A program made the position numbers and the translations under genes. A stretch of 41,222 nucleotides of DNA from a phage: sequence record NC_105863.1, one strand, 5' to 3'. The notes under the pieces are model-generated. The model was not told the DNA's origin and made no database searches. It was given only the letters and a program-made list of their open reading frames with translations. Shown here one piece after another: positions 5,257-37,201 of this stretch. Position 1 is the first letter of the stretch, and each line of letters starts with the position of its first letter.

Positions 5257-5643
5257 ATGAATCTTAAAGCAACTGTCGTAGCGGGAGCATGTTTCATCAT
5301 CCTGGCTTACGCACACGGCATCTACCAGTATCGCAGCGGCTGGAACGGAGGCCGGGCGAATCTCGTTTCGCAGCAACAGCAGAAAGCACAGGCTGAGTTA
5401 GCTAAGAAAACACAACGGCAGCAGCAGGATGAATCGAAGGCCGCCGCCGCTGATAACGAAGGCAAGACGAAATCAGAGGTAATCACCCGTGAAGTCGTTA
5501 AGTACATTAAAACGCCTGGCCGCAGTGTGTGCACTTTTGACCCTGAGCGCGTGCAGCTCAAGTCCCGCGCCGTCGCAAACGCCAATTCCATCCCCGGATA
5601 CGACGATGATGCAGCCGCCGTGCAAACTGGCACTGCCAAGTAA
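5257..5643 (+). CDS. i-spanin (Rz-like inner-membrane spanin subunit)
   Basis: 128 aa; N-terminal TM helix (VVAGACFIILAYAHGIY) followed by Gln/Ala/Lys-rich predicted coiled coil; RBS AGAAAGGGGA; overlaps a lipoprotein ORF in another frame. Confidence 0.65.
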   Translation: MNLKATVVAGACFIILAYAHGIYQYRSGWNGGRANLVSQQQQKAQAELAKKTQRQQQDESKAAAADNEGKTKSEVITREVVKYIKTPGRSVCTFDPERVQLKSRAVANANSIPGYDDDAAAVQTGTAK

Positions 5644-11220: not shown

Positions 11221-11256
11221 CTAAGGCCCCGTTTGGGGCCTTAGTTTTTTTTTTCT
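11221..11256. terminator. bidirectional rho-independent terminator (AAGGCCCCGTTTGGGGCCTT + T11)
   Basis: 8-bp GC stem with T-run on plus strand and AGTTTTAT on minus strand; sits between convergent major tail gene (+) and kinase gene (-). Confidence 0.7.
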
Positions 11257-11810
11257 TACAAACCTAATTTTAAAGCAATGTCTATAACGTTCGATTTAAC
11301 GTCACCCGGTATGATGTAGGTGTCGTAATCTTTTACACCATCAACGCCATACAGATAACCACGGCTGTCCCCCTCAAACGTATAGCCGTCACGATGAAGG
11401 CGAACGATTCGCACGTCATGCCCGACGGCGACGATAGGGGAAACTTCACTGGCGAATCCCCCGTCGGACACTACAAAAACTTCGTTGCCGTCGGGCAATC
11501 TTCCGGCAAGATACTTACCGAAATAATCGTCACCGAATACCGGTTTAATGAATTGCTCAGAAATGGCAATCATGAACTGACGCCGAGACAACCCGTTAAG
11601 GAAACCCTCTGGCTTTTCTTTCCGCGCCCGGTCGTCGTAGCCGTCGAGAAACTCGCGGTAAGCATCCTGGCCTAACGCAGCCATAGCAATATTGAACATC
11701 GGATTCTTGAAACTGGCGACACCCTTCGCAAAGCCCATTTCTACCAGCGCCCTAGCAAGTGTGTCTTTCCCGCAGCCCGCAGGACCATTAAGAATAATTA
11801 CCTTAGCCAT
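11256..11810 (-). CDS. P-loop nucleotide kinase (dNMP-kinase-like)
   Basis: Walker A GPAGCGKDT at N-terminus; 184 aa; last gene of a three-gene minus-strand operon; family assignment from motif only. Confidence 0.55.
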   Translation of the reverse strand: MAKVIILNGPAGCGKDTLARALVEMGFAKGVASFKNPMFNIAMAALGQDAYREFLDGYDDRARKEKPEGFLNGLSRRQFMIAISEQFIKPVFGDDYFGKYLAGRLPDGNEVFVVSDGGFASEVSPIVAVGHDVRIVRLHRDGYTFEGDSRGYLYGVDGVKDYDTYIIPGDVKSNVIDIALKLGL

Positions 11811-12295
11811 TATTTATCACTCCCATGTGGTTTTAAGTGTGTAGAGTTCCCGTTACAGTCGTATTCAGTAACTGCGTGAGTGGTTATGCCGAGTTCGCGG
11901 AAATGCTTTATTACCGCTGGAGAGTCGTCGAATGCACACAAGATTCTCTCCGGCCCAATAGCACGCAACACCTCTTCTTTAATTACGATGTCTTTTCTGT
12001 TGTCGTGTTTGCTGCGCATGATTAACTGATAAAATTCGACGCGGTGGCGCTGCAACCACATTCTGGTTTCTTTTTCCGCGTCATCACTACGGCCTGTTAA
12101 GATAATAACGGCATAGCGACGATTAAGGGCGTTACACAGTTCGATGTTATCTTTAATGGGTGCATCGTCTTTGCACGCCATGTTAAATGGTTTCCACGCC
12201 CAGGTTTCGCCGTAGTTATCTTTCGGCAGCAGGTGTAAACGATGAGTACCATCTGCCAATGTCCCGTCTAAATCGAAAATCACAATATCTTTCAT
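11810..12295 (-). CDS. HAD-superfamily phosphatase (nucleotidase / polynucleotide phosphatase-like)
   Basis: N-terminal HAD motif I IVIFDLDGTL; 161 aa; start overlaps upstream stop. Confidence 0.6.
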   Translation of the reverse strand: MKDIVIFDLDGTLADGTHRLHLLPKDNYGETWAWKPFNMACKDDAPIKDNIELCNALNRRYAVIILTGRSDDAEKETRMWLQRHRVEFYQLIMRSKHDNRKDIVIKEEVLRAIGPERILCAFDDSPAVIKHFRELGITTHAVTEYDCNGNSTHLKPHGSDK

Positions 12296-13422
12296 CCAAG
12301 CATCTCCGGTGAAATAGTTAAACGTGCGACCTCGCCATATTCGGCGCTATAAGTAATTACGTTTGCACTGCGGCCCGACATCCACCCACCGCGGGAGGCA
12401 TATGCATCTTTAGCCGCGAGAGTGCGGTGTTGCTCAACAATCATGTTACGGCTTTCTACAATCTTTTGGTGGTGCAGGTGACCCACGTGGGCGTAGCTGT
12501 AAACACTCTCGCCGAACGCTTTGCGGAACTTGGCGATCATAACCGGTTCGATAGCATCGAAGCGTGCTTTATGGCCGTGGTGAAAGAACAGCGTAGTTTT
12601 GCCGTGTTGCACCATCTTGTAAACATCCGGCGACGTATCGACGAACACACGCGGCTCATTGTCGTACAGCGTACTAAACATCTCAGCTAACCAAATCATT
12701 CCGCTTTCGTCGTGGTTACCTTGCACGATAAGCAAGCGAACATTTTTATGTTTAACGAGAGCCATATCAATGACACGGCGGACCATACGAATCATGTAGC
12801 GTACAAGTTTCTGATAGCGGGTGTCAGCGTCAAGAACATGACCACTGGCAGGTGTAACGGCGTCCAGACTATCGAAATGCGCAAGGTCGCCCAGCAGATT
12901 AATAACTCCTGTTCCGGCATCCGGTGCTTTCTGGAACGCTGCGTCGAACCAGCGGGAGAACAGGTCTTCCGCAATCTTCATGTCCCAGTCGTCGCCGCTC
13001 TCGTCAGCCCAGGCCAGCATACCGAGATGGAAATCAGACACAGTGTAAAGGTTGAGTAGCTTGTCGTCTCGTTTGGCGCGAACGGCTTTAACAGGTGCAA
13101 CTGGTGTAATCTCCGACTTCATGCCTTCGATTACGGCTTTCATCAATTCAACCTGACGTTCGGCATCGGTGTCGGTCTTAACCCATTGCAACTTGGTGTT
13201 GCCAAACTCATCCACCAGTGATGACGTTCCTTTAATCTTGTAGCCGTCCGGTACAAGGTAACTAACGTCACGCCCGTGGCCTACACCTTTCTTAGCCAGC
13301 TTCGCTTTACGGATACGAATAACGCGGTCGGAGATGCCGTATTTACGGGCGATGTCGATATTCTTCATACCGGCGTTCAATTCTTCCTGTAACTGTTCGT
13401 CGGTTATTTTCTTCCTGGCCAT
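12292..13422 (-). CDS. calcineurin-like metallophosphoesterase with N-terminal HTH-like domain
   Basis: Motifs SDFHLG, LGDLAHFD, QGNHDE, FFHHGH, VGHLHH match metallophosphoesterase motifs I-V; N-terminal 60 aa resemble an HTH (KYGISDRVIRIRKAKL). Confidence 0.6.
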   Translation of the reverse strand: MARKKITDEQLQEELNAGMKNIDIARKYGISDRVIRIRKAKLAKKGVGHGRDVSYLVPDGYKIKGTSSLVDEFGNTKLQWVKTDTDAERQVELMKAVIEGMKSEITPVAPVKAVRAKRDDKLLNLYTVSDFHLGMLAWADESGDDWDMKIAEDLFSRWFDAAFQKAPDAGTGVINLLGDLAHFDSLDAVTPASGHVLDADTRYQKLVRYMIRMVRRVIDMALVKHKNVRLLIVQGNHDESGMIWLAEMFSTLYDNEPRVFVDTSPDVYKMVQHGKTTLFFHHGHKARFDAIEPVMIAKFRKAFGESVYSYAHVGHLHHQKIVESRNMIVEQHRTLAAKDAYASRGGWMSGRSANVITYSAEYGEVARLTISPEMLG

Positions 13423-13651: not shown

Positions 13652-13685
13652 GGTGTAGTTCCTGTTTGAGTTAACATTGTTGGTG

Positions 13686-13722
13686 TAAGTGAATAGTATC
13701 CTATTATGTTGGGGTGTGCAAG
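13686..13722 (-). promoter_or_regulatory. sigma70-like promoter (TTGCAC -17- TACTAT), inverted duplicate of 35824-35860
   Basis: Reverse complement of 13686-13722 is identical over 37 bp to 35824-35860; reads TTGCAC, 17-bp spacer, TACTAT on minus strand, upstream of minus-strand ORFs 13651 down to 11256. Confidence 0.5.
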
Positions 13723-13828
13723 TAATGTGTTAGAATTATTTTGCGCCTAGTGTCGCACACGAAAAGCGGGTGGTTCCCGCCTGGCGCATTAACCTTAACC
13801 AGTAACCTCTTAACCAAAGGATTAAATA

Positions 13829-14245
13829 ATGAAACTTTCTGATTTTTATTACGAAGCTGAGGCCGAAAAAGGCGCGCGTATGCCGATCCCCCTGAAAGAT
13901 GGTACGGACTCAGGGGAATGGCTTAATGTTGTTTCTCCTGAGGCAGACGTTGCCGTTAAGGCCATGCGAGCATTTACGCTGGCGTACCGGGCGGCGTTAG
14001 GCAGACTGAAACAGCTTCGTGATAAATGCGAAGAGACGAAAGATTTCTCGGAATACAACATTAAGATGGAAGACGCAGCGACGGACCTTAACCGCCAGTT
14101 AGCACTTGAACTGGTTAACGGTTGGAGTCTCGACGATGAATTTAATAAAGAGAACTTGAATACTCTTTTCTCACAGTATAAACGACTCGCCGAACACGTT
14201 GTTGTTTTCCATAATGGACAGCTTCGCCAATTGCAGGAAAAGTAG
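13829..14245 (+). CDS. tail assembly chaperone (G-like)
   Basis: 138-aa acidic ORF immediately upstream of tape measure gene with overlapping downstream ORF in -1 frame. Confidence 0.55.
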   Translation: MKLSDFYYEAEAEKGARMPIPLKDGTDSGEWLNVVSPEADVAVKAMRAFTLAYRAALGRLKQLRDKCEETKDFSEYNIKMEDAATDLNRQLALELVNGWSLDDEFNKENLNTLFSQYKRLAEHVVVFHNGQLRQLQEK

Positions 14246-14250
14246 ACGCG

Positions 14251-14610
14251 TTGCTCCAGTTCGCCCGTTGGAACTTCATAACCCGCCACAAACGGCGGGA
14301 ATTTGACAGTATTGCCGATGGGCATAAAGCTGCGCTAATTGCTATGGGGGTTATGCAAGACGCGCCGGAAGCAACGCAGGACGCCGGGCCAGAATGCCCC
14401 CCTGAGCTACTAACCACCTTCGAGAAGTACCGGGAAATCAAATTTACCCGCCGAGTGGATGACGACGGCATCAAGATGTACCCGCGCGAACAGTTACGAT
14501 GGTCGGATTTAGTGGCGTACAGCACCGTTTCAGGCCAGAATATAGGCATGTTTGAATCTGACATCATCATGAGCTTAGACGCTATTTTCGAGGGTAGAAA
14601 CGATGGCTGA
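14251..14610 (+). CDS. tail assembly chaperone second ORF (T-like; possible -1 frameshift extension or separate TTG-start gene)
   Basis: -1 frame is open from 14215, overlapping end of 13829-14245 ORF; TTG at 14251 preceded by AGGAAAAG; ends with ATGA-type overlap on tape measure start. Confidence 0.4.
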   Translation: MLQFARWNFITRHKRREFDSIADGHKAALIAMGVMQDAPEATQDAGPECPPELLTTFEKYREIKFTRRVDDDGIKMYPREQLRWSDLVAYSTVSGQNIGMFESDIIMSLDAIFEGRNDG

Positions 14611-20874: not shown

Positions 20875-23829
20875 ATGTCAAGCGGATGCGGTGACGTTTT
20901 AAGCCTGGCGGATTTACAAACCGCCAAGAAACATCAGATTTTCGAGGCCGAGGTTATCACTGGCAAATCCGGCGGTGTCGCCGGTGGTGCCGATATTGAT
21001 TACGCGACAAATCAGGTTACTGGACAGACCCAGAAGACGTTACCTGCCGTGTTGCGTGATGCTGGTTTTAAACTGGCAGATTTTGATTTCACGTCAGGCG
21101 GTACACTATCCGCTAACGACCGAAACACCGCAGTTTTGTGGCCGTCGTCCTCTGGCGGTGACGGGGATTGGTACTATTGGTTGGGTGCTCTACCAAAAAT
21201 TATCCCAGCGTCATCCTCCCCGCAGTCCACCGGTGGCGTGGCAGATGGGGCGTGGCAGCCTGTCGGGTCGGTCATACTGCGGCAGCAAATATCTGATGTA
21301 AACGGTGCAATTCTGTACCCAGATTTACATGTGGCGCGATGGAAGGACGAATACGACCCGCGCGCATGGGGCGCCGTGGGCGACGGCGTAACTGATGATA
21401 CTCAATCTATTTTTAATGTATTAGCAGCTTCCCCCAACAATTGGATTATAGACGGCAGGGGTTTGACTTATAAAGTTTCCCAATTACCTGACATTAGTAA
21501 ATTTAAGAATGCTGCATTCGTTTACGAGCGCGTAGCCGGGCAACCGCTTACTTATGTAGCTGATGGCTTCTTTAACGGCTCACTAACTAAGGTGACGGAT
21601 ACCCCGTTCTACAACGCATGGACGCAGGATAAAACTTTCGTCTACGACCATGTTATTTACGCCCCGTTTATGGCGGGCGAACGACATGGTGTTCAAAACT
21701 TACATGTAGCTTGGGTTCGCTCTGGAGACGACGGGCAGACTTGGTCAATGCCTGAGTGGTTGACTCCAATCCATGCTGACTATAATGCTAGTGTTTCTAC
21801 GAACAGAGTTAACTACCACTGCATGAGCATGGGTACGTGCGGCAACCGATTATATGCAGTTATAGAAACCCGCTACTTATCTAATATGCGGATGAAGAAG
21901 GCAGAACTTTGGTCACGCCCAATGCCGTATTTTAGACACCCAACCGGCGGAATAACTATTAGTTCTGGCTCCACTACTGCTACCATTGTTATAGAAAATC
22001 ATGGCCTAAAAGCAGGAGATGCGGTTAACTTCTCTAATACATCGGCAACTGGCGTATCGGGTAATATGACGGTTGCGTCTATAATTAACCGAAATACGTT
22101 CACTGTTACGCTCTCAAGCCCTGCGAGTTCCACCATAAACAATGCGGGTGTTACCTGGAACTTCGCAACGCGATTCTGGGACAGCCCGTGGGAAATTACC
22201 GAATTGCCGGGGGTAGCATACTCCACTAACGCTGATTTGTGTGTCACGGAGACACATAGTTTTGCGGTTATAGATGATACTAACTACACTATCGCTGTCG
22301 GCTATCACAACGGCGATGTGTCCCCTCGGCGTCTCGGCGTCTTGTATTTTAGTAACGTGTATGACAATCCAGGCGTATTCGTTCGTCGCACTGTCGCTCA
22401 GGCATACGCTGATAACGCTTCTGAGCCGTGCGTGAAAAGTTATGGAGGTGTGCTCTACCTTACCACACGCGGCACATTACCTACTTCCCCTGGCTCTACA
22501 CTGGCGATGAGCACCGATTCAGGGCAAAACTGGAGCTACTTGCGATTTCCGAACAATGTACATCACTCCAATCTTCCGTTCGCTAAAGTAGGTGACTATC
22601 TCTACATCTTTGGTACAGAACGTGCCTTCGGCGAGTGGGAAGGTGGCGAGCAAGACAGCCGCTATGAAGGTTCGTATCCACGGACCTTTATGTGCAAAGT
22701 TAATGTGTCGTCATGGCCCTCATCTTTAGATGATGTTCAGTGGTTTAATATTACCGACCAAATATACCAGGGTCATATCGTTAACACTGCTGTCGGCGTC
22801 GGCTCGGTCTGTGTTAAAGATGGCTGGTTGTACTATATCTTTGGTGGGGAAGACTTCTTCTCTCCCTGGAGCATCGGGGATAACAGTGCGAAGTTATGGT
22901 ACAAGCATGATGGGCATCCGGCTGACTTATATAGCTACCGGATAAAGATTGAAGGCCACCCGTATGTGTCACGTGATTTCAAATACGGAGCAACTCCTAA
23001 CCGTACACTACCTGTCGCAATGGGTGTAGATGGTGTCCGTCATGTAGAAGCACCTTTGACGTTTGACAATGATATAAGCGTGTACTCCCTGCGTGTAACG
23101 GGGTTGGAATACGATGGCACACAACAGTCTGCCGTGCGTGCACGGTTTGATGGTGATTACGGGCTGATTTCAAAAACAGTCCCGACTAAAACTCCATCGG
23201 GTCAACGACTGATTGTTAGTGGCGGTGATGGCGCATCCAGTTCCGACGGTGCATTGCTGCAACTGTACGGGTCGAACCATGCAACGCCTAACAGGGCTAT
23301 TATGTATGCGTCAGGAGGCTTCTACTCATACGACAATTTCCTTCCTTACTTAGACTCGCAAGTGTCTTTAGGTTCGGCAGGTAATAGGTGGACTACGGTG
23401 TACGCGACCACCGGTACGATAAACACGTCTGATGGTACACTTAAGACGAATAAAGAGGAAATTGAGGGACAACTCCTTACCGCATGGGAGGATATACATG
23501 TAATATCTTTTAAGTGGCTTGAAAGCCTAGCAATCAAGGGTGACACTGCAAGGATACACTTCGGTGTGATAGCCCAAGATGTGCGAGACATCTTGGTCAA
23601 CCATGGGCTTATGGAGAAAGATTCTACCGATTGTAAATATGCTTTCTTGTGCTACGACCCAATTGAAGCTGCGTATGATATTGATGAAGATGGCCAGACT
23701 GTACAAGTATCCCCTCCCGGCGGCAGATGGGGGGTTAGGGCGGACCAGATGTTCTTCATAGAGATTGCCTATCAGCGTAAGAAGATGCGCGAGTTCGAGA
23801 AGAGGCTGGCAGCACTAGAAGATAAATAA
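20875..23829 (+). CDS. tailspike / capsule depolymerase with C-terminal intramolecular chaperone (peptidase S74-like) domain
   Basis: 984 aa; two Asp-box (BNR) motifs SGDDGQTW and STDSGQNW; GAVGDGVTDDT motif typical of beta-helix glycosidases; C-terminal segment from about 23428 (TSDGTLKTNKEEIEGQ..) resembles the auto-cleaving chaperone of endosialidase/tail-fibre proteins. Confidence 0.75.
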   Translation: MSSGCGDVLSLADLQTAKKHQIFEAEVITGKSGGVAGGADIDYATNQVTGQTQKTLPAVLRDAGFKLADFDFTSGGTLSANDRNTAVLWPSSSGGDGDWYYWLGALPKIIPASSSPQSTGGVADGAWQPVGSVILRQQISDVNGAILYPDLHVARWKDEYDPRAWGAVGDGVTDDTQSIFNVLAASPNNWIIDGRGLTYKVSQLPDISKFKNAAFVYERVAGQPLTYVADGFFNGSLTKVTDTPFYNAWTQDKTFVYDHVIYAPFMAGERHGVQNLHVAWVRSGDDGQTWSMPEWLTPIHADYNASVSTNRVNYHCMSMGTCGNRLYAVIETRYLSNMRMKKAELWSRPMPYFRHPTGGITISSGSTTATIVIENHGLKAGDAVNFSNTSATGVSGNMTVASIINRNTFTVTLSSPASSTINNAGVTWNFATRFWDSPWEITELPGVAYSTNADLCVTETHSFAVIDDTNYTIAVGYHNGDVSPRRLGVLYFSNVYDNPGVFVRRTVAQAYADNASEPCVKSYGGVLYLTTRGTLPTSPGSTLAMSTDSGQNWSYLRFPNNVHHSNLPFAKVGDYLYIFGTERAFGEWEGGEQDSRYEGSYPRTFMCKVNVSSWPSSLDDVQWFNITDQIYQGHIVNTAVGVGSVCVKDGWLYYIFGGEDFFSPWSIGDNSAKLWYKHDGHPADLYSYRIKIEGHPYVSRDFKYGATPNRTLPVAMGVDGVRHVEAPLTFDNDISVYSLRVTGLEYDGTQQSAVRARFDGDYGLISKTVPTKTPSGQRLIVSGGDGASSSDGALLQLYGSNHATPNRAIMYASGGFYSYDNFLPYLDSQVSLGSAGNRWTTVYATTGTINTSDGTLKTNKEEIEGQLLTAWEDIHVISFKWLESLAIKGDTARIHFGVIAQDVRDILVNHGLMEKDSTDCKYAFLCYDPIEAAYDIDEDGQTVQVSPPGGRWGVRADQMFFIEIAYQRKKMREFEKRLAALEDK

Positions 23830-23995: not shown

Positions 23996-25416
23996 TTCTT
24001 ACCTCTTCTCTTCATATAATTAAGCAATTCTTCCTGGACCGATTTCTTCTCGTCTGTACGCGCGGCAACAACCTCGTCAAGAGTGTCTTTAGCGACTATG
24101 TGATAAAGGAACACCGGGCGCTCGTGGCCAGCCTGTTTCTGGCGGACCGGGCCTATACGCTCGACAACCTGCAAATAGTGCTCAAGATTCCAGCCTTGCG
24201 AAATAAACGCCAGATGATGCCCGCCGTCCTGTAAATTCAAACCATGCCCGGCTGACGCCGGGTGCACGCATAAGATTTCGATTTCGCCACGGTTCCACGC
24301 TTCCATCTGCTTATTACCCTTCGCACCTTTGGCGAACGCCTGCGCCTGCGGGAATCGCTTAAGGATGCGCTCCAGTTCATGCTTAAACTGATAAGCCACA
24401 AGTAACGGTGCGCCCTGTAACTCCTCGACAATGGACTCGAGCGCATCCAGTTTCGTATCGTGCACTTTCTCCCAGTCTTTCGTTGCCTCACCGTCCGGCC
24501 CTGACACATATACGGCGCCGGATGCAATCTGCAAACACTTTGACGTCTTCGCTGCGGCGTTAGCCGCTTCTACTTCCCCGCTCTCCAGTTCCGCGAATAA
24601 CTTCTCCTCCATATCGATGTACGCCTGGCGTGCTTTCTTCGGCAGGTCTATTTCAACCGGTACGATAATCGGCGCTTCGCAACCGAACCACTCGGCAGCG
24701 TCAATCGTGAGACTAATGTCTTTCATCTTCTGATGAATTTCATTATCTGCACCCGGTCGCGCATGATACTCTCGCGCCATCGCCGACTTACCTTTCTGGA
24801 CAGAGTTAAACCATCGGTCGGTGAATGCCGTGTATGAAGAACCGAGGCGCTCGCCTGCGTCGATAAACCAGTTCTGACCCCACAAGTCTTTGAGGCCGTT
24901 CGGTGACGGCGTACCAGTAAGGTTGATGAAACGCTTAACCTTACCGAATGCCACTTTACTAAGCGCCTTTGCCCGCTTGCTGCCACCTGAACGGCTACGG
25001 AAAGATTTCAGTTTCGTGCTTTCATCGGCAACAATAACCGTAAAAGGCCAGTCGTCTTTGCCGTAGTAGTCAATCAGCCACTCGATAACTTCGTAGTTAG
25101 TGCACACCACGTTAGCATCTGACTCCAGCGCCGCGATGCGGCGTTTCTCTGAACCTGTCGCATCTACGACACGCAGGCACGGGAATCGCCATTTCTCTTG
25201 TTCTGCCGGCCATGTACCTGATGCAACGCGCAACGGGGCGAGAATTAACACGCGGTCGTCGTCCGTAAGTTGCCCGTTGCGGAACAGGCGGTTTAAAGTC
25301 CACAGGACGCTGCCAGTCTTCCCGGCGCCCATGCTCGCCCAAATATTACAGCGATGGTGCTGCAACATGAACGAGGTCATGAGCTTCTGGTATTCGCGCC
25401 TTTGAAACTTACTCAT
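23992..25416 (-). CDS. SNF2-family (superfamily 2) DNA helicase
   Basis: Walker A ASMGAGKTGS, DExx-like IVADESTKLK, C-terminal helicase motif VI-like QVVERIGPVRQ; 474 aa. Confidence 0.75.
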   Translation of the reverse strand: MSKFQRREYQKLMTSFMLQHHRCNIWASMGAGKTGSVLWTLNRLFRNGQLTDDDRVLILAPLRVASGTWPAEQEKWRFPCLRVVDATGSEKRRIAALESDANVVCTNYEVIEWLIDYYGKDDWPFTVIVADESTKLKSFRSRSGGSKRAKALSKVAFGKVKRFINLTGTPSPNGLKDLWGQNWFIDAGERLGSSYTAFTDRWFNSVQKGKSAMAREYHARPGADNEIHQKMKDISLTIDAAEWFGCEAPIIVPVEIDLPKKARQAYIDMEEKLFAELESGEVEAANAAAKTSKCLQIASGAVYVSGPDGEATKDWEKVHDTKLDALESIVEELQGAPLLVAYQFKHELERILKRFPQAQAFAKGAKGNKQMEAWNRGEIEILCVHPASAGHGLNLQDGGHHLAFISQGWNLEHYLQVVERIGPVRQKQAGHERPVFLYHIVAKDTLDEVVAARTDEKKSVQEELLNYMKRRGKK

Positions 25417-26233
25417 TTACGGCCCCCATAAACGCCTTTATAAATTCGGCGGCTACTTGCGGGACGATGGCATTGCCGTAACCGCGCAATCGTCCCACTC
25501 TGGCGGGTATCCCATTAGCCAGCGGGAATGCGCCGGGTTCAACCGGCCGGAACTTTCCATCACGGCATCCGAGCCAGTCAGCATCTGACCAGAAGCCGTG
25601 GTGCGGGTTGGTTGACTCGCTTTCAATCCCTGCTCTGTTGAGTAGTCCAGCCTGTCGAATGTTCTGTCCCTCCCGTCCGTGCGAATCACTGTCTCTCCAC
25701 TCCCTCTGAAGTCGTTCGCTGTCGGTGTAGGCCAGTTCGTGCGCGCCAAAGAAGAGTCGTTCTCTTTTGTGCGGTGCGCCGACGCTACAAGCTGGGAGTA
25801 CAGCAAACCCGACGGCGTAGTCTTCTCCTTCCAGGTGAGCTTGTAAATCGCACATCCACGATTTTGCAATTGCTGCCGCAACCTGCTCCCCAAAGATGAC
25901 TGGAGGGCGGCACTCGCTGATGAGGTCGAGGAAGACCGGCGCGAGGTGTCTCGGGTCGAACTGTCCGAGTTGCTTTCCCGCCGCGCTAAACGGTTGGCAA
26001 GGCGGGCTTCCCGTCCAGAGAGGCGCATCTTCCGGAACTCCCGCAAGTCTGAGCGCGAGAGGCCAGCCGCCGATACCCGCGAAAAAATGACACTGGGTGA
26101 ACCCGTCAAGGTCTTCTGGCTTAACTTCGGTAATGCTTCTTTCATCTACAACTCCAAAAGGTATGTGACCCTGTTTTATCAACTCACGCAGCCACGCGGC
26201 TGCGCCTTTATCCCATTCATTGTAATAGTTCAT
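25409..26233 (-). CDS. DNA (cytosine-5)-methyltransferase-like protein, compact
   Basis: Motif I FFAGIGG, motif IV PC dipeptide in [16 protein letters not shown]-like FGEQV, motif VIII-like KRERLFF, C-terminal [11 protein letters not shown]; only 274 aa so the variable/target-recognition region is unusually short. Confidence 0.65.
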
Positions 26234-26451: not shown

Positions 26452-26736
26452 CTAACTATAATAGTTCGCTATTAGGTCGTCAACCTGTTTAAACGAACCA
26501 ACGACAAAAACATTCGCACCACGTTTACGCATACGCTCGTGCTCACGTAACTGGTGTGGGTCTGGCTTCGTGTTTTCGTCTTTCTTAACCTCGACGAACA
26601 AGACGATGCCGCCGGGTAGAATTACCAGCAGGTCGGGAGCGCCGGAGCGCCCCTCATAGGAAAGTTTACGAACGAGGCCGCCGATAGCCTCGAATCGCTC
26701 TTTTGCGTATTTCTGGATGCGCCCCTCTTTAGTCAT
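26452..26736 (-). CDS. VRR-NUC domain nuclease
   Basis: 94 aa; PD-(D/E)XK-type core GAPDLLVILPGGIVLFVEVKKDE characteristic of VRR-NUC proteins. Confidence 0.65.
   Translation of the reverse strand: MTKEGRIQKYAKERFEAIGGLVRKLSYEGRSGAPDLLVILPGGIVLFVEVKKDENTKPDPHQLREHERMRKRGANVFVVGSFKQVDDLIANYYS
26455..26483 (-). promoter_or_regulatory. sigma70-like promoter (TTGACG -17- TATAGT) with palindromic AACTATAATAGTT core
   Basis: Minus strand reads TTGACG, 17 bp, TATAGT; plus-strand sequence 26454-26466 is the near-perfect palindrome AACTATAATAGTT. Confidence 0.5.
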
Positions 26737-30161: not shown

Positions 30162-30190
30162 ACTATAATAGCTAACTATTCAGGTGTCAA
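30162..30190 (-). promoter_or_regulatory. sigma70-like promoter (TTGACA -17- TATAGT) with palindromic CTATAATAG core
   Basis: Consensus -35 and near-consensus -10 on minus strand in the 55-bp gap between nuclease and DUF2815-like genes. Confidence 0.55.
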
Positions 30191-31460: not shown

Positions 31461-31714
31461 TGGTCAATTAAATGTCGTGTCTGGTGATGGCAATGCATGG
31501 CCCACCCGTACATCGACTCGAAGACATAAAAGTCAGGTTTGGCGAAAGTCGTGCGCTTAATCTGCGACACGTGACGGCCTATATCTTTAGGCCGTGGTAC
31601 TTTGCCTAAGTACGCCATCTCTTCCATCTGGTGCGAGCCAGACGGCGCACGTAACAGCCATAGCGCCTCTGTGCTATCCCGCCTGTCTACGGCGCGGTAG
31701 AGTTGGTAAATCAT
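31442..31714 (-). CDS. hypothetical protein (90 aa)
   Basis: ORF overlapping nuclease gene start by 19 nt; Cys/His-containing (WAMHCHHQTRH). Confidence 0.4.
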   Translation of the reverse strand: MIYQLYRAVDRRDSTEALWLLRAPSGSHQMEEMAYLGKVPRPKDIGRHVSQIKRTTFAKPDFYVFESMYGWAMHCHHQTRHLIDQWESRV

Positions 31715-31757: not shown

Positions 31758-32237
31758 TTATTCTTCTTCGAAATACTTGTTCTTGATTGCTGTCAGGCGT
31801 TCCAGGTATTCAGCCAGGTCTTCGTCTTTAATCGCAGCAATCTTCATCTTCTTACCGGTAAACTCTTCCAGCAGTTCGTCAGAATCGTCGCACGCGGCAT
31901 CGCTTGGGCCTTCGTTAATCGCATCGTCGATAGCCTGAATCTGGTCACGAAGAGACTGGTAGTCGACTTCTTCTTTCTCTTCTTTCTCTTCTTCCGGCTC
32001 TGGCGTTGGTTCCTCTACTTTAGCTTTACGCGGCTTGCGTTTGGGCTTCTCTTCTTCTGCCGGTTTAGTGTCAACGACGTCTTCACCTTCTACCGGGATT
32101 TCTTTCGTTACTTCTTTCACAACAGTAGGCTCTATTGTTGCAGTTTCGGCAACGACAACTTGTTTCGCACTGTTCGCAGCAATCAGTTCATGTGCAACTA
32201 CGAAACGTTCCAGTAATACTAAGAATTTCTCTAACAT
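31758..32237 (-). CDS. highly acidic early protein (low-complexity Glu/Pro/Lys-rich)
   Basis: 159 aa; runs such as PEPEEEKEEKEEVD; strong RBS GAGGAG; first gene downstream of promoter 32269-32297. Confidence 0.5.
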   Translation of the reverse strand: MLEKFLVLLERFVVAHELIAANSAKQVVVAETATIEPTVVKEVTKEIPVEGEDVVDTKPAEEEKPKRKPRKAKVEEPTPEPEEEKEEKEEVDYQSLRDQIQAIDDAINEGPSDAACDDSDELLEEFTGKKMKIAAIKDEDLAEYLERLTAIKNKYFEEE

Positions 32238-32268
32238 TATTTATTCTCCTCTCGTTTGGTATGGGCTA

Positions 32269-32297
32269 ACTATAATAGTGAACTATTCACTTGTCAA
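32269..32297 (-). promoter_or_regulatory. sigma70-like promoter (TTGACA -17- TATAGT) with palindromic AACTATAATAGTG core
   Basis: Consensus -35/-10 on minus strand in divergent intergenic region 32238-32361. Confidence 0.55.
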
Positions 32298-32361
32298 TGG
32301 GCTTTTCTAAAATAATTAATATGGTACTATTCACATATCAACTGACTAAGGAGTAATTGAC

Positions 32362-32577
32362 ATGCTACCATCTGAACTAAGCATCCGCGTAGAACAGCGC
32401 CGTAAAGAACTCGGCATCTCCCAGCGCCGTCTGGCGATCCTCACCGGCGTTTCCCAGGGCGCTATTAACCAGCTTGCGCTTGGGGTGACTCAGGACGTCC
32501 GCCCGGCGACGCTGTTTAAACTGGCGGAAGTGCTGGAAGTAGACGCCAAGTGGCTGGCGTTCGGTGAAGGGGCTTAA
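32362..32577 (+). CDS. XRE-family helix-turn-helix transcriptional regulator (Cro/CI-like)
   Basis: 71 aa; HTH signature ELGISQRRLAILTGVSQGAINQL; RBS AAGGAG; only plus-strand gene inside the minus-strand early block. Confidence 0.7.
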   Translation: MLPSELSIRVEQRRKELGISQRRLAILTGVSQGAINQLALGVTQDVRPATLFKLAEVLEVDAKWLAFGEGA

Positions 32578-32593
32578 CGCCCCTTTCTTTTTA
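32566..32593 (+). terminator. rho-independent terminator (AAGGGGCTTAACGCCCCTTTCTTTTT)
   Basis: Hairpin overlapping stop codon of regulator gene, followed by T-run. Confidence 0.6.
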
Positions 32594-32594
32594 C

Positions 32595-34820
32595 CTATTC
32601 CAAATCTTCCTCAGTAACCACTAGCATTTCATTCGGTTCGTATATTGTCTTCGGCCTTAATCTATCCACTATTCTTTCAGGTATACGATATGTTCTCGGT
32701 ACTACTTCGCCATTAACATCGCAGCCTAGCATTAGTTCGCCATCTTTCAGCATTTTATCAAGATGGGTGTTAGTCACAGAAAAGTCACCGGAACGGGCCA
32801 CTATCTGCTGCTGGGTAAAACCGCGACCTGTATCATCTGACTGTTGCAGGTCTTCCAGTGCTGAAAGTATTGACTCCTTCCTTACTTCATCCCTGCCGCG
32901 GTTAACTTTTTCCTTTACTTTTTGTTTACCTTCGTTAGTTAACCCTTCTTCCCGCTCTTTCTCCTCGTCAGTTTTGAACGGCTCGAAGCCCCACGGCATC
33001 AGAACAAGCGCCTTGTGTGGTTCCGGCAGGTCGAGGTTTACGATTGTGCCGTATTCCTCTGTGCTACCGAGGAACTCCACCGCGCGGTACTCTTTCGCTG
33101 GCGGTGCTTCGCGGAACTGTACCGACTCAAGCACCATTCCAACCGTTTTCTGTTGGGGGCCGTGCTTAAATTTCGAGTGGTATACGTTTATCTGACGGTC
33201 GGTTGCACGTTCGATTGTCAGTTCCACGTCGACACCCGCATACAGCGCCCCGCTGCCACGGGCTTTCTTTCCCCCCTTCGGTGTATGGTGAACAACGCCC
33301 ACCGCGGCTTTGGTTGCGTCGCGTACTTCTTTCAGTATGGCGATAACTTTACCCATGCCGATTGTCGTCGACGAACTGTTCTCGTCGAACTTATCAATCG
33401 TCAGGGCCAGCGTCTGGTTAAGGGTGTCGAATGCGACCATACCAATAGGCTCGCCGTTGGCGGTTTCGCGCATCCTGCGGATTAGCGCGGGAATTTTTTT
33501 ATCACCATGCGCCGTGAGTACCTCACCCATGTCGATGACATGCACATAATCTTTACCTTCCCTGCCATATTTAGCCGCGAGTGCGTCAATACGTGTGCGT
33601 GTAGCTGCGCCACCTTCACCGTCGATATAGAAATGGTGGCAACGCTGGGTGTCTGCCCCCGCAAACCGGTACCCGGCGGCGCTAAGGTACATCACCCCCA
33701 GCGTATAGAATGATTTATATGTGCCGGATTCCCCGACGATGTCCCAGATGCAATCCGATGGCATGTACCCTTCAACGACGAAATCAGCCTTTACCGGTTC
33801 AGGTAACTCGTCATCGTCTTCAAGGTCTTCCAGTGTACAAGTTACAGGCTCCTCGTTCTCTGTGCGGTGCAGTTCTTCAATCTCTTCATCCGGTAAATCA
33901 GGCAGAGCCGCACGAATGCTGTTAATACTGATAGGTTGCTTGTCTACGTTAAGCTCGTCCGGAAGGCCGCACATACGCAGGGCCAAATGTTGTCGGCGGT
34001 TAAGCTCAGTGCAAGCGCCGTTGTTTGTGTGCTGGCACACGAAGCGCACCTCTTTACCGTCAAGCATGATGCTGGTGGAGCCTTTGCCTGTATGCAGATG
34101 TTCATTAGGGCATGGCACTTCATACCCTCGGCCGGAAGATAAAGCGTCAAGGCCCAGCTCGGCTTCGCAGAAATGAGCTATATCTGCGTTAAGCCCGTGC
34201 TCATCGGCGGCAAGTGTCTTAGCCTCGCGTTTACGCAGCCCCATCTCTTCGGCTTTCTTGATGTACCGCTCCGCACGGATAACACGCCCTTCTGTAACCG
34301 TTATCTTAGACTCTTTATGTGGCAGGTAGATGAGGCGGTTGCCGTCTTCCGTGCAGTGGTCGCGCAGCGATTCATCTATTTCTAACTCGGCACAAATAGC
34401 ACGTTGCACCATCCACGCGTCGTTAGAGTTAAACGGAGTGCGAGCCGGTACGAGGACGCGGAAAGCGTAATCACCGTTTTTACACGCGTGCTGATGTGAC
34501 GCCGTTGTGTGCAGAATATTGAAGAACGGTGCGTTCTTGAATTTGCGGGTAAGGTCGCGGTACTGAGTACGGTTGAGATGGTCGAAGTCAAACTTAACCA
34601 CACTGTCTTCCAGAATCGCGTTCTTACGGCGACCGCCAACCGGCGCAATAGCTTTCTGCTTAATCTTGGCCGCGTCGTACTCTTCCTTAGTCCATGACGG
34701 GTCTACGGACAGACGCTTCGATGTATCGCAGACATACTCTACAAACTGCTCCAGTGGCATTTCACGGGCTACCGGGTTTTTATCGAATGTGTTACGCAGC
34801 GTTGCAAAAACAATATTCAT
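32595..34820 (-). CDS. DNA primase / replicative helicase-type protein (N-terminal primase-like region, C-terminal RecA-fold ATPase)
   Basis: 741 aa; Walker A GESGTYKS and Walker B-like MVAFD in C-terminal half; central Cys/His cluster CPNEHLH..CQHTNNGAC. Confidence 0.65.
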   Translation of the reverse strand: MNIVFATLRNTFDKNPVAREMPLEQFVEYVCDTSKRLSVDPSWTKEEYDAAKIKQKAIAPVGGRRKNAILEDSVVKFDFDHLNRTQYRDLTRKFKNAPFFNILHTTASHQHACKNGDYAFRVLVPARTPFNSNDAWMVQRAICAELEIDESLRDHCTEDGNRLIYLPHKESKITVTEGRVIRAERYIKKAEEMGLRKREAKTLAADEHGLNADIAHFCEAELGLDALSSGRGYEVPCPNEHLHTGKGSTSIMLDGKEVRFVCQHTNNGACTELNRRQHLALRMCGLPDELNVDKQPISINSIRAALPDLPDEEIEELHRTENEEPVTCTLEDLEDDDELPEPVKADFVVEGYMPSDCIWDIVGESGTYKSFYTLGVMYLSAAGYRFAGADTQRCHHFYIDGEGGAATRTRIDALAAKYGREGKDYVHVIDMGEVLTAHGDKKIPALIRRMRETANGEPIGMVAFDTLNQTLALTIDKFDENSSSTTIGMGKVIAILKEVRDATKAAVGVVHHTPKGGKKARGSGALYAGVDVELTIERATDRQINVYHSKFKHGPQQKTVGMVLESVQFREAPPAKEYRAVEFLGSTEEYGTIVNLDLPEPHKALVLMPWGFEPFKTDEEKEREEGLTNEGKQKVKEKVNRGRDEVRKESILSALEDLQQSDDTGRGFTQQQIVARSGDFSVTNTHLDKMLKDGELMLGCDVNGEVVPRTYRIPERIVDRLRPKTIYEPNEMLVVTEEDLE

Positions 34821-34945
34821 TTCTTTTTCTCCGCACGTTCTAAGGCTTCCTGCATACGGCGCATTGCGCGGTTCATCTTTACCGGTGCGAAGAAATCAGC
34901 GCCATGTTTCTGGCGGCGTAGCTGTGGAACTATTAACTTTGTCAT
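34817..34945 (-). CDS. micro-ORF (42 aa, basic) translationally coupled to primase-helicase
   Basis: MTKLIVPQLRRQKHGADFFAPVKMNRAMRRMQEALERAEKKK; RBS AAGGA; TGA overlaps primase ATG (ATGA). Confidence 0.3.
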   Translation of the reverse strand: MTKLIVPQLRRQKHGADFFAPVKMNRAMRRMQEALERAEKKK

Positions 34946-35013
34946 TGTATAATCCTTGTGCTTACTTTGATGATTTGTACTTTAGCCCCGACGTTCTGGC
35001 GTTGGGGTTTCTT

Positions 35014-35226
35014 TTATTTATCGCCCGCAAACCACGCGTGCGCAGAATCATAGAAACGACATTTACTTAACACGTCTACTGGCATCTTAATAATGCGTGT
35101 AGGTTCCGACAAATGATTAGGCTTACATATTTCTGCATAGAATCCGCTGTCAGTAATTTCTGACGCAAACTTAAACCAGTATTTAACTTTACCGTTTTCA
35201 AAGTAACAACCCATACGTCCAATCAT
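35014..35226 (-). CDS. hypothetical protein (70 aa)
   Basis: ORF with ATGA overlap on upstream HTH gene stop. Confidence 0.4.
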   Translation of the reverse strand: MIGRMGCYFENGKVKYWFKFASEITDSGFYAEICKPNHLSEPTRIIKMPVDVLSKCRFYDSAHAWFAGDK

Positions 35227-35405
35227 TTCACGTTCTCCTTAATCCATGCTTCAACTTTATTACGGTCAAATGTACCTGGTAAACGGCGACCCATAACCTT
35301 AATACAACAATCAGGGAATTTACCACTGCGCAACCAGTTATTAATTGTCTGACGTGTTACCCCAATACGCTCGGCTACTTCATTCTGTGTCATGTAATGT
35401 TGCAT
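35223..35405 (-). CDS. small helix-turn-helix DNA-binding protein (60 aa)
   Basis: MQHYMTQNEVAERIGVTRQTINNWLRSGKF.. is a classic HTH; ATG 35405 has RBS AGGAGA; ORF track start 35519 would run through the promoter, so the shorter form is preferred. Confidence 0.55.
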   Translation of the reverse strand: MQHYMTQNEVAERIGVTRQTINNWLRSGKFPDCCIKVMGRRLPGTFDRNKVEAWIKENVK

Positions 35406-35436
35406 TTCTATATCTCCTGTTTGTTTGGTGAAGCTG

Positions 35437-35465
35437 AGTATAGGATAGCGGGAATGTAAAAGCAA
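35437..35465 (-). promoter_or_regulatory. sigma70-like promoter for leftward early operon (TTGCTT -17- TATACT)
   Basis: Read on minus strand about 30 nt upstream of HTH gene start. Confidence 0.45.
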
Positions 35466-35502
35466 CCAATCCCTGCAATATTTAATCTTTACAAAAAAGT
35501 TA

Positions 35503-35532
35503 TTGAAAGTTCTTGACACATGTTTGTATAAT
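35503..35532 (+). promoter_or_regulatory. sigma70-like promoter for rightward transcription (TTGAAA -18- TATAAT)
   Basis: Consensus -10 TATAAT at 35527-35532; divergent from 35437-35465. Confidence 0.5.
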
Positions 35533-35824: not shown

Positions 35825-35853
35825 TTGCACACCCCAACATAATAGGATACTAT
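35825..35853 (+). promoter_or_regulatory. sigma70-like promoter (TTGCAC -17- TACTAT), copy of 13686-13722
   Basis: Part of 37-bp exact inverted repeat; about 35 nt upstream of gene 35888. Confidence 0.5.
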
Positions 35854-35887
35854 TCACTTATCGAAACGAGACAGAGGAGTGAGGGTT

Positions 35888-37141: not shown

Positions 37142-37170
37142 TTGCACACTAAGATAGAATAGGCTACTAT
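37142..37170 (+). promoter_or_regulatory. sigma70-like promoter (TTGCAC -17- TACTAT), third member of TACTATTCA family
   Basis: Same -35 and -10 hexamers as 35825-35853, with related spacer (AATAGGcTACTATTCA). Confidence 0.5.
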
Positions 37171-37201
37171 TCATTTACACAAACGAGAGGGGAGACAGAA
37201 T

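Follow-up and report, generated by a model that had tools for sequence, protein, structure and literature searches.

A 434 Cro-type regulator and candidate operators in palindromic promoter cores of a virulent Kagunavirus

The operators of phage 434 are 14-bp dyads, whose half-sites of 4–5 bp lie about one helical turn apart. Among the described systems, 434 Cro (PDB 2cro, 3cro) is the one that the small regulator considered here resembles most. The regulator has 71 amino acids (aa) and the same five-helix HTH fold, with ~40% identity over 62–65 aligned residues, and its recognition helix starts with glutamine, as does that of 434 Cro with Gln28. In addition, its candidate operator is also a 14-bp dyad, and its gene is read rightward from a divergent control region and stands, in six lineages, before a replication gene. 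On the other hand, there are clear differences from 434. The Kagunavirus is virulent, and it lacks a CI partner, a tripartite OR and lysogeny; it carries two sites 44 bp apart and at least five more that are dispersed over other promoters; and its half-site is AATAG, compared with ACAA in 434.

Two further kinds of systems are worth comparing. Repressor C1 of phage P1 has many operators around the genome, and gp71 of mycobacteriophage L5 has its ‘stoperators’; both proteins are lysogeny-maintaining repressors with asymmetric sites. Our locus is similar in that one small phage repressor occurs together with a short site repeated over the transcription units, and different in that the phage is virulent and the sites are dyads placed on promoter cores. 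The restriction-modification controllers C.AhdI and C.BclI are small, self-regulating XRE dimers that bind dyads in their own promoter, and they are close fold matches of the regulator. However, these controllers come with a linked restriction-modification gene pair and act on adjacent C-boxes, and the Kagunavirus locus has neither. The reading of the regulator as such a C protein has been rejected, since its gene is monocistronic, the neighbouring genes encode a 159-aa protein and a primase-helicase, and the C5 methylase lies 6 kb away.

The DNA analysed is a stretch of 41,222 bases, called the window below. It runs from the small terminase gene, which is the first, to the last small gene, in the same gene order as phage Sciku, and is a complete genome of a Kagunavirus (subfamily Guernseyvirinae). 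A 1.5-kb piece around the locus matches 441 phage records, all of them E. coli Kagunaviruses or Salmonella Jerseyviruses, and the best of these reach 93–94% identity. We propose, with a probability of roughly 0.55, that the regulator is a Cro-only, self-limiting repressor of 434 Cro type for early and middle promoters, which would act on the leftward promoter PL and on other dyad promoters of this virulent phage.

The regulator gene and its control region

The features of the locus, by coordinates in the window, are the following.

32362–32577, plus strand: xre/cro-like gene, ATG to TAA, 71 aa, single-domain HTH_3
32348–32353, plus strand: Shine-Dalgarno sequence AAGGAG, 8 nt 5' of the ATG
32566–32594, plus strand: intrinsic terminator of the regulator gene; the hairpin (32566–32586) overlaps the stop codon and is followed by TTTCTTTTT
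32322–32330, plus strand: predicted extended −10 promoter of the regulator, TGgTACTAT (TG at 32322–32323, TACTAT at 32325–32330)
32269–32297, minus strand: leftward promoter PL, TTGACA (32297–32292), 17 nt, TATAGT (32274–32269); 11/12
32273–32341, listed without strand: two 25-nt direct-repeat promoter/operator modules (32273–32297 and 32317–32341), 80% identical
31758–32237, minus strand: first gene of the PL operon, 159-aa acidic protein, PHROG 3127
32595–34820, minus strand: primase-helicase gene (AAA_25), convergent on the regulator gene
35223–35405, minus strand: second small HTH protein, Pfam HTH_17, excisionase/MerR-like PHROG 66

At the protein level, the regulator matches Pfam HTH_3 (PF01381) over residues 11–65 with 43.2 bits (cut-off 23; E = 4e-11), and PHROG families of transcription regulators match it at an E-value of about 1e-10. 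The best sequence match among solved structures is 434 Cro (phmmer, E = 1.1e-6), with residues 6–68 aligned to 4–64. An AlphaFold single-sequence model has five helices and a pLDDT of 81, and its best Foldseek match is again 2cro (TM 0.77/0.84, rmsd 1.6 Å, 40% identity), followed by 434 repressor, HipB, SinR, restriction-modification controller proteins and P22 c2. The predicted recognition helix covers approximately residues 32–39 (QGAINQLA), and all of the seven proteins aligned, which include 434 Cro and 434 repressor, have glutamine at its first position. With ~70 aa in a five-helix fold, and with neither a C-terminal oligomerisation domain nor a peptidase domain, the regulator has the form of 434 Cro. 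Overall, it is a single-domain XRE repressor of the 434 Cro type, which is a known kind of protein. An antitoxin of the HipB/HigA type has also been considered and was rejected, since the gene has no co-directional neighbour and its terminator stands directly 3' of the stop codon.

The initial annotation had described a plus-strand gene of the XRE family, of Cro/CI type and with its own terminator, which faces a strong leftward promoter across a divergent control region of 124 bp. This description is borne out by the open reading frame with its AAGGAG, the HTH_3 match, a U-run on the plus strand, 434 Cro as the closest solved relative, and the TTGACA-17-TATAGT promoter (11/12) opposite the gene. 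The terminator hairpin has a folding energy of −14.9 kcal/mol (z = −2.15), and the U-run 3' of it exists on the plus strand only. As the terminator is one-way, leftward transcripts of the helicase should, judging from the sequence, probably run antisense through the regulator gene and on into the PL operon.

The intergenic control region (32238–32361) contains two predicted promoters. PL is predicted to drive the 159-aa gene together with the exonuclease operon. On the minus strand, only one other intergenic site in the window reaches 11/12. The promoter of the regulator itself has a weak −35, in fact almost none, and its counterpart in Jerseyvirus reads TTGCAC-17-TACTAT. As a class, promoter-like sites are not enriched in the control region (3 found, 3.1 expected). 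In addition, folding of the region does not exceed that of shuffled controls on either strand (z = −0.3 and −1.1), and an Rfam search of it has returned no family match; a role of the palindromes at the RNA level has been rejected on these results.

For 36 distinct Kagunavirus coding sequences of the regulator gene, the dN/dS is 0.055 at a mean dS of 0.26, and the variable codons comprise 44 purely synonymous and 14 protein-changing ones. That is, the gene is under strong purifying selection and is not decaying. Against this mean dS, 37 distinct Kagunavirus sequences hardly differ at positions 32292–32361, and the control region is thus conserved far beyond the neutral expectation. In the closely related phage K1B4, the ortholog of the regulator is gene 004, a plus-strand coding sequence of 216 nt between gene 003 and the helicase gene 005, both of which are on the minus strand. 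Among the gene classes reported from infection RNA-seq of K1B4 (PMC12645636), gene 004 is placed in the ‘middle’ class, and the HTH_17 gene 008 is one of only four genes classed as ‘early’.

All nine lineages compared have the helicase gene as well as the XRE and 159-aa genes, and in each of the nine the 159-aa gene is syntenic with the regulator. Six of them, namely St162, AH01 and four metagenomic lineages, share one gene order: the leftward 159-aa gene, the divergent promoters, the regulator, (a small gene) and the primase-helicase. Everything past the divergent promoters is rightward there, with the primase-helicase downstream of the regulator and on its strand, and this order of a leftward gene, divergent promoters, regulator and replication gene mirrors the lambdoid cI-cro-O-P topology. 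In Kagunavirus, Jerseyvirus and the lineage L047, the helicase block is on the opposite strand and the HTH_17 gene has been added at its head (compared over 32595–35519 of the window, L009 10385–12685 and L010 42850–45141). By parsimony, with six lineages against one clade, the inverted block would be the derived state. Such an inversion would explain why the regulator is a lone, monocistronic plus-strand gene with a terminator of its own. The gene had been taken to be embedded in the early leftward operon, which is not supported: its two leftward neighbours are separate transcription units, and the layout would go back to the inversion.

The 14-bp dyad in promoter cores

The two 25-nt modules of the control region are 44 bp apart, start to start, and their common core is a 14-bp dyad, AATAG-N4-CTATT. 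What the initial annotation had called palindromic promoter cores is this dyad, and its identification is what is new here. Its copies on recognisable promoter cores number seven, two of which are in the control region of the regulator. They are given below without strand.

32274–32287: candidate operator OL, perfect dyad AATAGTGAACTATT, at −25..−12 in the PL spacer
32318–32331: candidate operator OR, AATATGGTACTATT, one mismatch, overlapping the regulator's own −10
30167–30180: AATAGCTAACTATT, in the spacer of a leftward TTGACA-17-TATAGT promoter; SSB and DNA polymerase operon
26460–26473: AATAGTTCGCTATT, in the spacer of a leftward TTGACG-17-TATAGT promoter; methylase and SNF2 helicase operon
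35841–35854: AATAGGATACTATT, in a divergent control region, overlapping the −10 of a rightward TTGCAC-17-TACTAT promoter
37158–37171: AATAGGCTACTATT, overlapping the −10 of a rightward TTGCAC-17-TACTAT promoter
13692–13705: AATAGTATCCTATT, in a divergent control region, with a leftward TTGCAC-17-TACTAT promoter

In the whole window, the dyad occurs six times exactly and four times with one mismatch, compared with 1.07 expected sites, and none of 100 shuffled controls reaches ten sites. It is the most frequent palindrome besides the G+C-rich terminator stems in the window, in Sciku and in a Jerseyvirus. Six of the seven core dyads are wholly non-coding, where non-coding DNA makes up 10.6% of the window (P about 1e-5), and both intergenic 11/12 promoters of the minus strand are overlapped by a dyad. 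GTGAA-N3-TTCAC has been considered as another palindrome and set aside, as it is not enriched (3 sites, 1.4 expected).

Two geometries can be distinguished. At 32274, 30167 and 26460, the dyad occupies the spacer, at −25..−12, of strong leftward TTGAC(A/G)-17-TATAGT promoters. At 35841, 37158 and 13692, it covers the −10 of TTGCAC-17-TACTAT promoters, each with a Shine-Dalgarno sequence and a start codon downstream.

For the conservation of the dyads, we have anchored the alignments on the flanking sequence, so that the motif search introduces no bias. At 32274, the arms AATAG/CTATT are invariant in 37 distinct Kagunavirus sequences; variation is seen at three of the four central bases and also, with indels, from the dyad to the −35. 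At 30167, 26460, 35841 and 37158, the arms are likewise invariant or nearly so and the centre varies. The spacer positions held by the dyad arms are not read by sigma-70, and the fixed arms should therefore be constrained by something else. That the palindromic promoter cores are the targets of the regulator, as had been suggested at the outset, is the best available hypothesis for these sequence patterns.

The motif has already been listed for phage fBC-Eco01 (record OM272052.1; L001 4633–4652) as tgAATAGTa-ccTATTat-T, where it was given to a ‘phage-encoded RNA polymerase’ (PMC9825357). The PHIRE ‘phage promoter5’ of fBC-Eco01 is at the same place as the candidate OR. However, no RNA polymerase gene is found in the window or in the annotated relatives, and the listed sites look like sigma-70 promoters with an operator. 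None of the ortholog records and papers found links the motif to the regulator. A dyad regulon, if true, would set right the published attribution of the motif to a non-existent phage RNA polymerase, and would offer a compact handle on expression timing in an engineerable 41-kb phage.

Proposed action of the regulator and competing explanations

In the mechanism we propose, the regulator would bind the dyads as a dimer, as 434 Cro does on its 14-bp operators. Since the dyads are at −25..−12 or −19..−6 of the promoters, this binding would exclude RNA polymerase. As the regulator accumulates, it would turn down the replication and early operons, PL first, and at the weaker site, the one with a mismatch in the regulator's promoter, it would hold down its own synthesis. 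Such a circuit would correspond to the lytic half of the lambdoid one built on Cro, and would have no CI, no integrase and no bistability.

Only two HTH proteins are encoded in the window, the XRE regulator and the HTH_17 protein. Homologs of the latter occur, among the nine lineages compared, only in Kagunavirus, Jerseyvirus and L047, which is intermediate between them. The HTH_17 protein has been rejected as a general dyad binder, since it has no homolog in the complete genomes of AH01, where the dyad is recoded, and St162, or in four other lineages; the other ‘DNA binding protein’ of AH01 is not HTH_17 either. By analogy with 434, a 71-aa protein of the 434 Cro type would be the expected kind of reader for a 14-bp dyad, and we infer from the sequences that the XRE regulator would be the protein that binds the dyads.

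The comparison between lineages bears on how far such binding may extend. In Pantoea phage AH01, a compensated dyad, AATAC-N4-GTATT, is present at about eight promoter-like sites, among them both sites beside the AH01 regulator gene. Lineage L071 has the half-sites TTAGC-N2-GCTAA, and St162 has only loose variants, TATTAG-N4-GTA(A/T)TA. The regulators of Kagunavirus and Jerseyvirus are 46–48% identical and their recognition helices differ (SQGAINQL and SQSLITHL, respectively), whereas the half-site AATAG is common to both; in Jerseyvirus, the two dyads adjoining the regulator gene are the most degenerate ones. A comparable divergence is known between 434 Cro and 434 repressor, which bind the same operators. 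In view of this precedent, the helix difference weakens the case and does not refute it. No code that relates recognition helix to half-site can be derived from the four lineages.

A wider form of the proposal holds that one Cro-like protein has a genome-wide regulon, with the dyad in essentially every sigma-70 promoter core, one dyad often being shared by two back-to-back promoters, and with half-sites (AATAG, AATAC, TTAGC) that are recoded symmetrically along with the regulator. We regard this as possible and hold it only tentatively. If an operator is present on every promoter, the escape of the late genes from repression stands against the repressor reading. In the regulator-carrying lineages L058, St162/L062, L063 and L073, no clear recurrent dyad has been found in the sequence available, and de novo repeat discovery in L058, L063 and L073 gave no recurrent AT-rich motif, so the dyad regulon cannot be extended to all carriers of the regulator. 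If the genome-wide regulon were true, a single small repressor would time or throttle the whole transcription programme, and the recoded half-sites would provide a natural set of orthogonal repressor/operator pairs. General concepts would stay unchanged even if the dyad regulon is true, since small XRE repressors on dyad operators are textbook knowledge.

That the regulator is kept in lineages with no recognisable multi-promoter dyad also speaks for the strongest of the alternatives, namely that it acts only locally, on its own divergent region, and that the genome-wide dyads belong to a promoter cassette read by RNA polymerase or another factor. Downstream of the dyad promoters there is a shared leader, (C)AAACGAGAGGAG, with a Shine-Dalgarno sequence (32240–32262, 35858–35875, 37176–37195), so that promoter, operator and leader recur as one cassette, as duplicated cassettes would; the spread of this cassette contributes to the repetition of the dyad. 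The flanks of the motif are polar (tg...at), and at four sites the motif overlaps the −10 hexamer TACTAT, for which reason part of the dyad conservation could come from contacts of RNA polymerase or from cassette spread. We nevertheless consider a purely local action unlikely. The spacer arms are invariant next to spacer bases that vary, which sigma-70 contacts do not explain; the change in AH01 from G..C to C..G is symmetric; and no other DNA-binding protein is conserved across the lineages.

There is little chance, in our estimate, for a dual role like that of C proteins, in which low levels of the regulator activate promoters with a weak −35, namely those of the form TTGCAC-17-TACTAT and the regulator's own, and high levels repress them. 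The dyads lie over the −10 or in the spacer and not 5' of the −35, where class I/II activators sit, although the −35 is indeed poor at four dyad promoters and almost absent at the regulator's own. Likewise, two sites of unequal quality adjoin the gene, but at 44 bp from each other they are not adjacent as C-boxes are, and the presence of C.AhdI and C.BclI among the close structural matches is not accompanied by an adjoining restriction-modification gene pair.

We would give similarly small credit to the idea that the regulator acts mainly on others, either by shutting the early promoters of superinfecting relatives, as a homo-immunity in the absence of lysogeny, or by binding host or prophage promoters. 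A repressor that works in trans on all early promoters would as a matter of course block another genome of the same type too, and the half-sites differ among lineages as immunity specificities do. However, the DNA binding required is the one already assumed in the main explanation, so that this would be an added consequence of it rather than an alternative; besides, relatives annotate a separate superinfection-immunity gene.

Lysogeny, earlier annotation and further observations

Pfam scans of the large open reading frames of the window have found terminase, portal, capsid, tail, polymerase, helicases, methylase, phosphatases and nuclease, and no integrase or recombinase. None was found in three fully annotated relatives either, and neither CI nor an S24 peptidase was found in the window. 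With the whole genome in the window, there is nowhere outside it for a hidden integrase. When 5,426 complete E. coli genomes were searched with 10 kb around the locus, no prophage turned up, and there is no close relative in 185,579 species-representative genomes. Hidden lysogeny has been rejected on these searches, and the phage is strictly virulent (lytic). The impression of an apparently virulent phage with no lysogeny module, gained earlier from the DNA, has thus stood up to the search for an integrase in the large open reading frames of the complete genome.

The one hit in the species-representative genomes is a Jerseyvirus-type regulator, 46% identical to the protein in the window, on scaffold22 (L092, 18,987 bp) of Taishania pollutisoli, an unrelated bacterium; phage DNA contaminating the assembly is a more likely source than a prophage.

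On the other hand, the term ‘transcriptional switch’, used for the locus at first, is not supported, because no opposing repressor is present: the 159-aa protein of the divergent gene has no Pfam domain, no HTH and no peptidase. Instead of a lambdoid tripartite operator, there are two dyads, one per promoter. Since no CI stands opposite the regulator, the circuit would be Cro-only negative feedback rather than a bistable switch. It is very improbable that the gene is a remnant, now in decay, of the immunity region of a temperate ancestor, or that it forms one half of a genuine lysis/lysogeny switch with its partner elsewhere, for all that the six-lineage order mirrors cI-cro-O-P: a dN/dS of 0.055 and a nearly invariant control region exclude decay, the complete genome has no integrase, CI or S24 peptidase, and the 5,426 E. 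coli genomes and 185,579 species genomes contain no prophage copy and no close relative, respectively.

The regulator gene itself is not new. Orthologs with 91–96% identity at the same Kagunavirus locus have already been annotated publicly, as Sciku gp47 (‘transcriptional regulator Cro’, with similarity to 434 Cro cited), JSSK01_59 (‘transcriptional repressor’) and fBC-Eco01 gp52; other labels are ‘XRE family transcriptional regulator’ and ‘hypothetical protein’, and more than 400 Guernseyvirinae records carry such orthologs overall. Our literature searches have found no paper that tests the function of the regulator, and one Kagunavirus paper states that no repressor is present. This matters in practice, as the use of Kagunaviruses and Jerseyviruses in therapy and biocontrol has been widely suggested, and they also serve as engineering chassis. 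A ‘repressor’ is taken in some papers as a sign of a temperate phage, and according to others these phages lack one; once the gene is shown to be a Cro-only lytic regulator without a partner for lysogeny, the ambiguity over this marker disappears.

Several other features of the genome have been observed. The tailspike gene (20875–23829, plus strand) encodes a complete endosialidase with an N-terminal extension, beta-propeller, beta-barrel, tail-spike domain and S74 chaperone, from which it follows that the phage targets the K1 polysialic acid capsule. Accessory enzymes are encoded in 11256–13422 and 25409–26233, both on the minus strand. Among them are an AAA_18-like kinase (a weak match, under the Pfam cut-off), a PNKP-type HAD phosphatase, a metallophosphatase and a C5 cytosine methylase; the first three are possibly an RNA or DNA end-repair set.

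In Sciku, the coding sequence annotated as ‘superinfection immunity protein’ (14024–14353) contains a dyad promoter at 14256. In the window, the open reading frame that matches it (within 13652–13850) ends short of the dyad at 13692. Comparing the two, the start codon in Sciku may have been called too far upstream.

In addition, a type I-E CRISPR array of E. coli 2017.09.02CC (NZ_AP025214.2; L091 1351–1928) has nine spacers, of which four match this phage. Two matches are exact, one in the control region between the two dyads (32293–32325, minus strand) and one inside the regulator gene (32526–32558, plus strand); the other two, at 31583–31615 and 5291–5323 (both minus strand), have 2 and 3 mismatches. 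Three of the four targets are no more than 1 kb apart, a clustering that would fit primed spacer acquisition.
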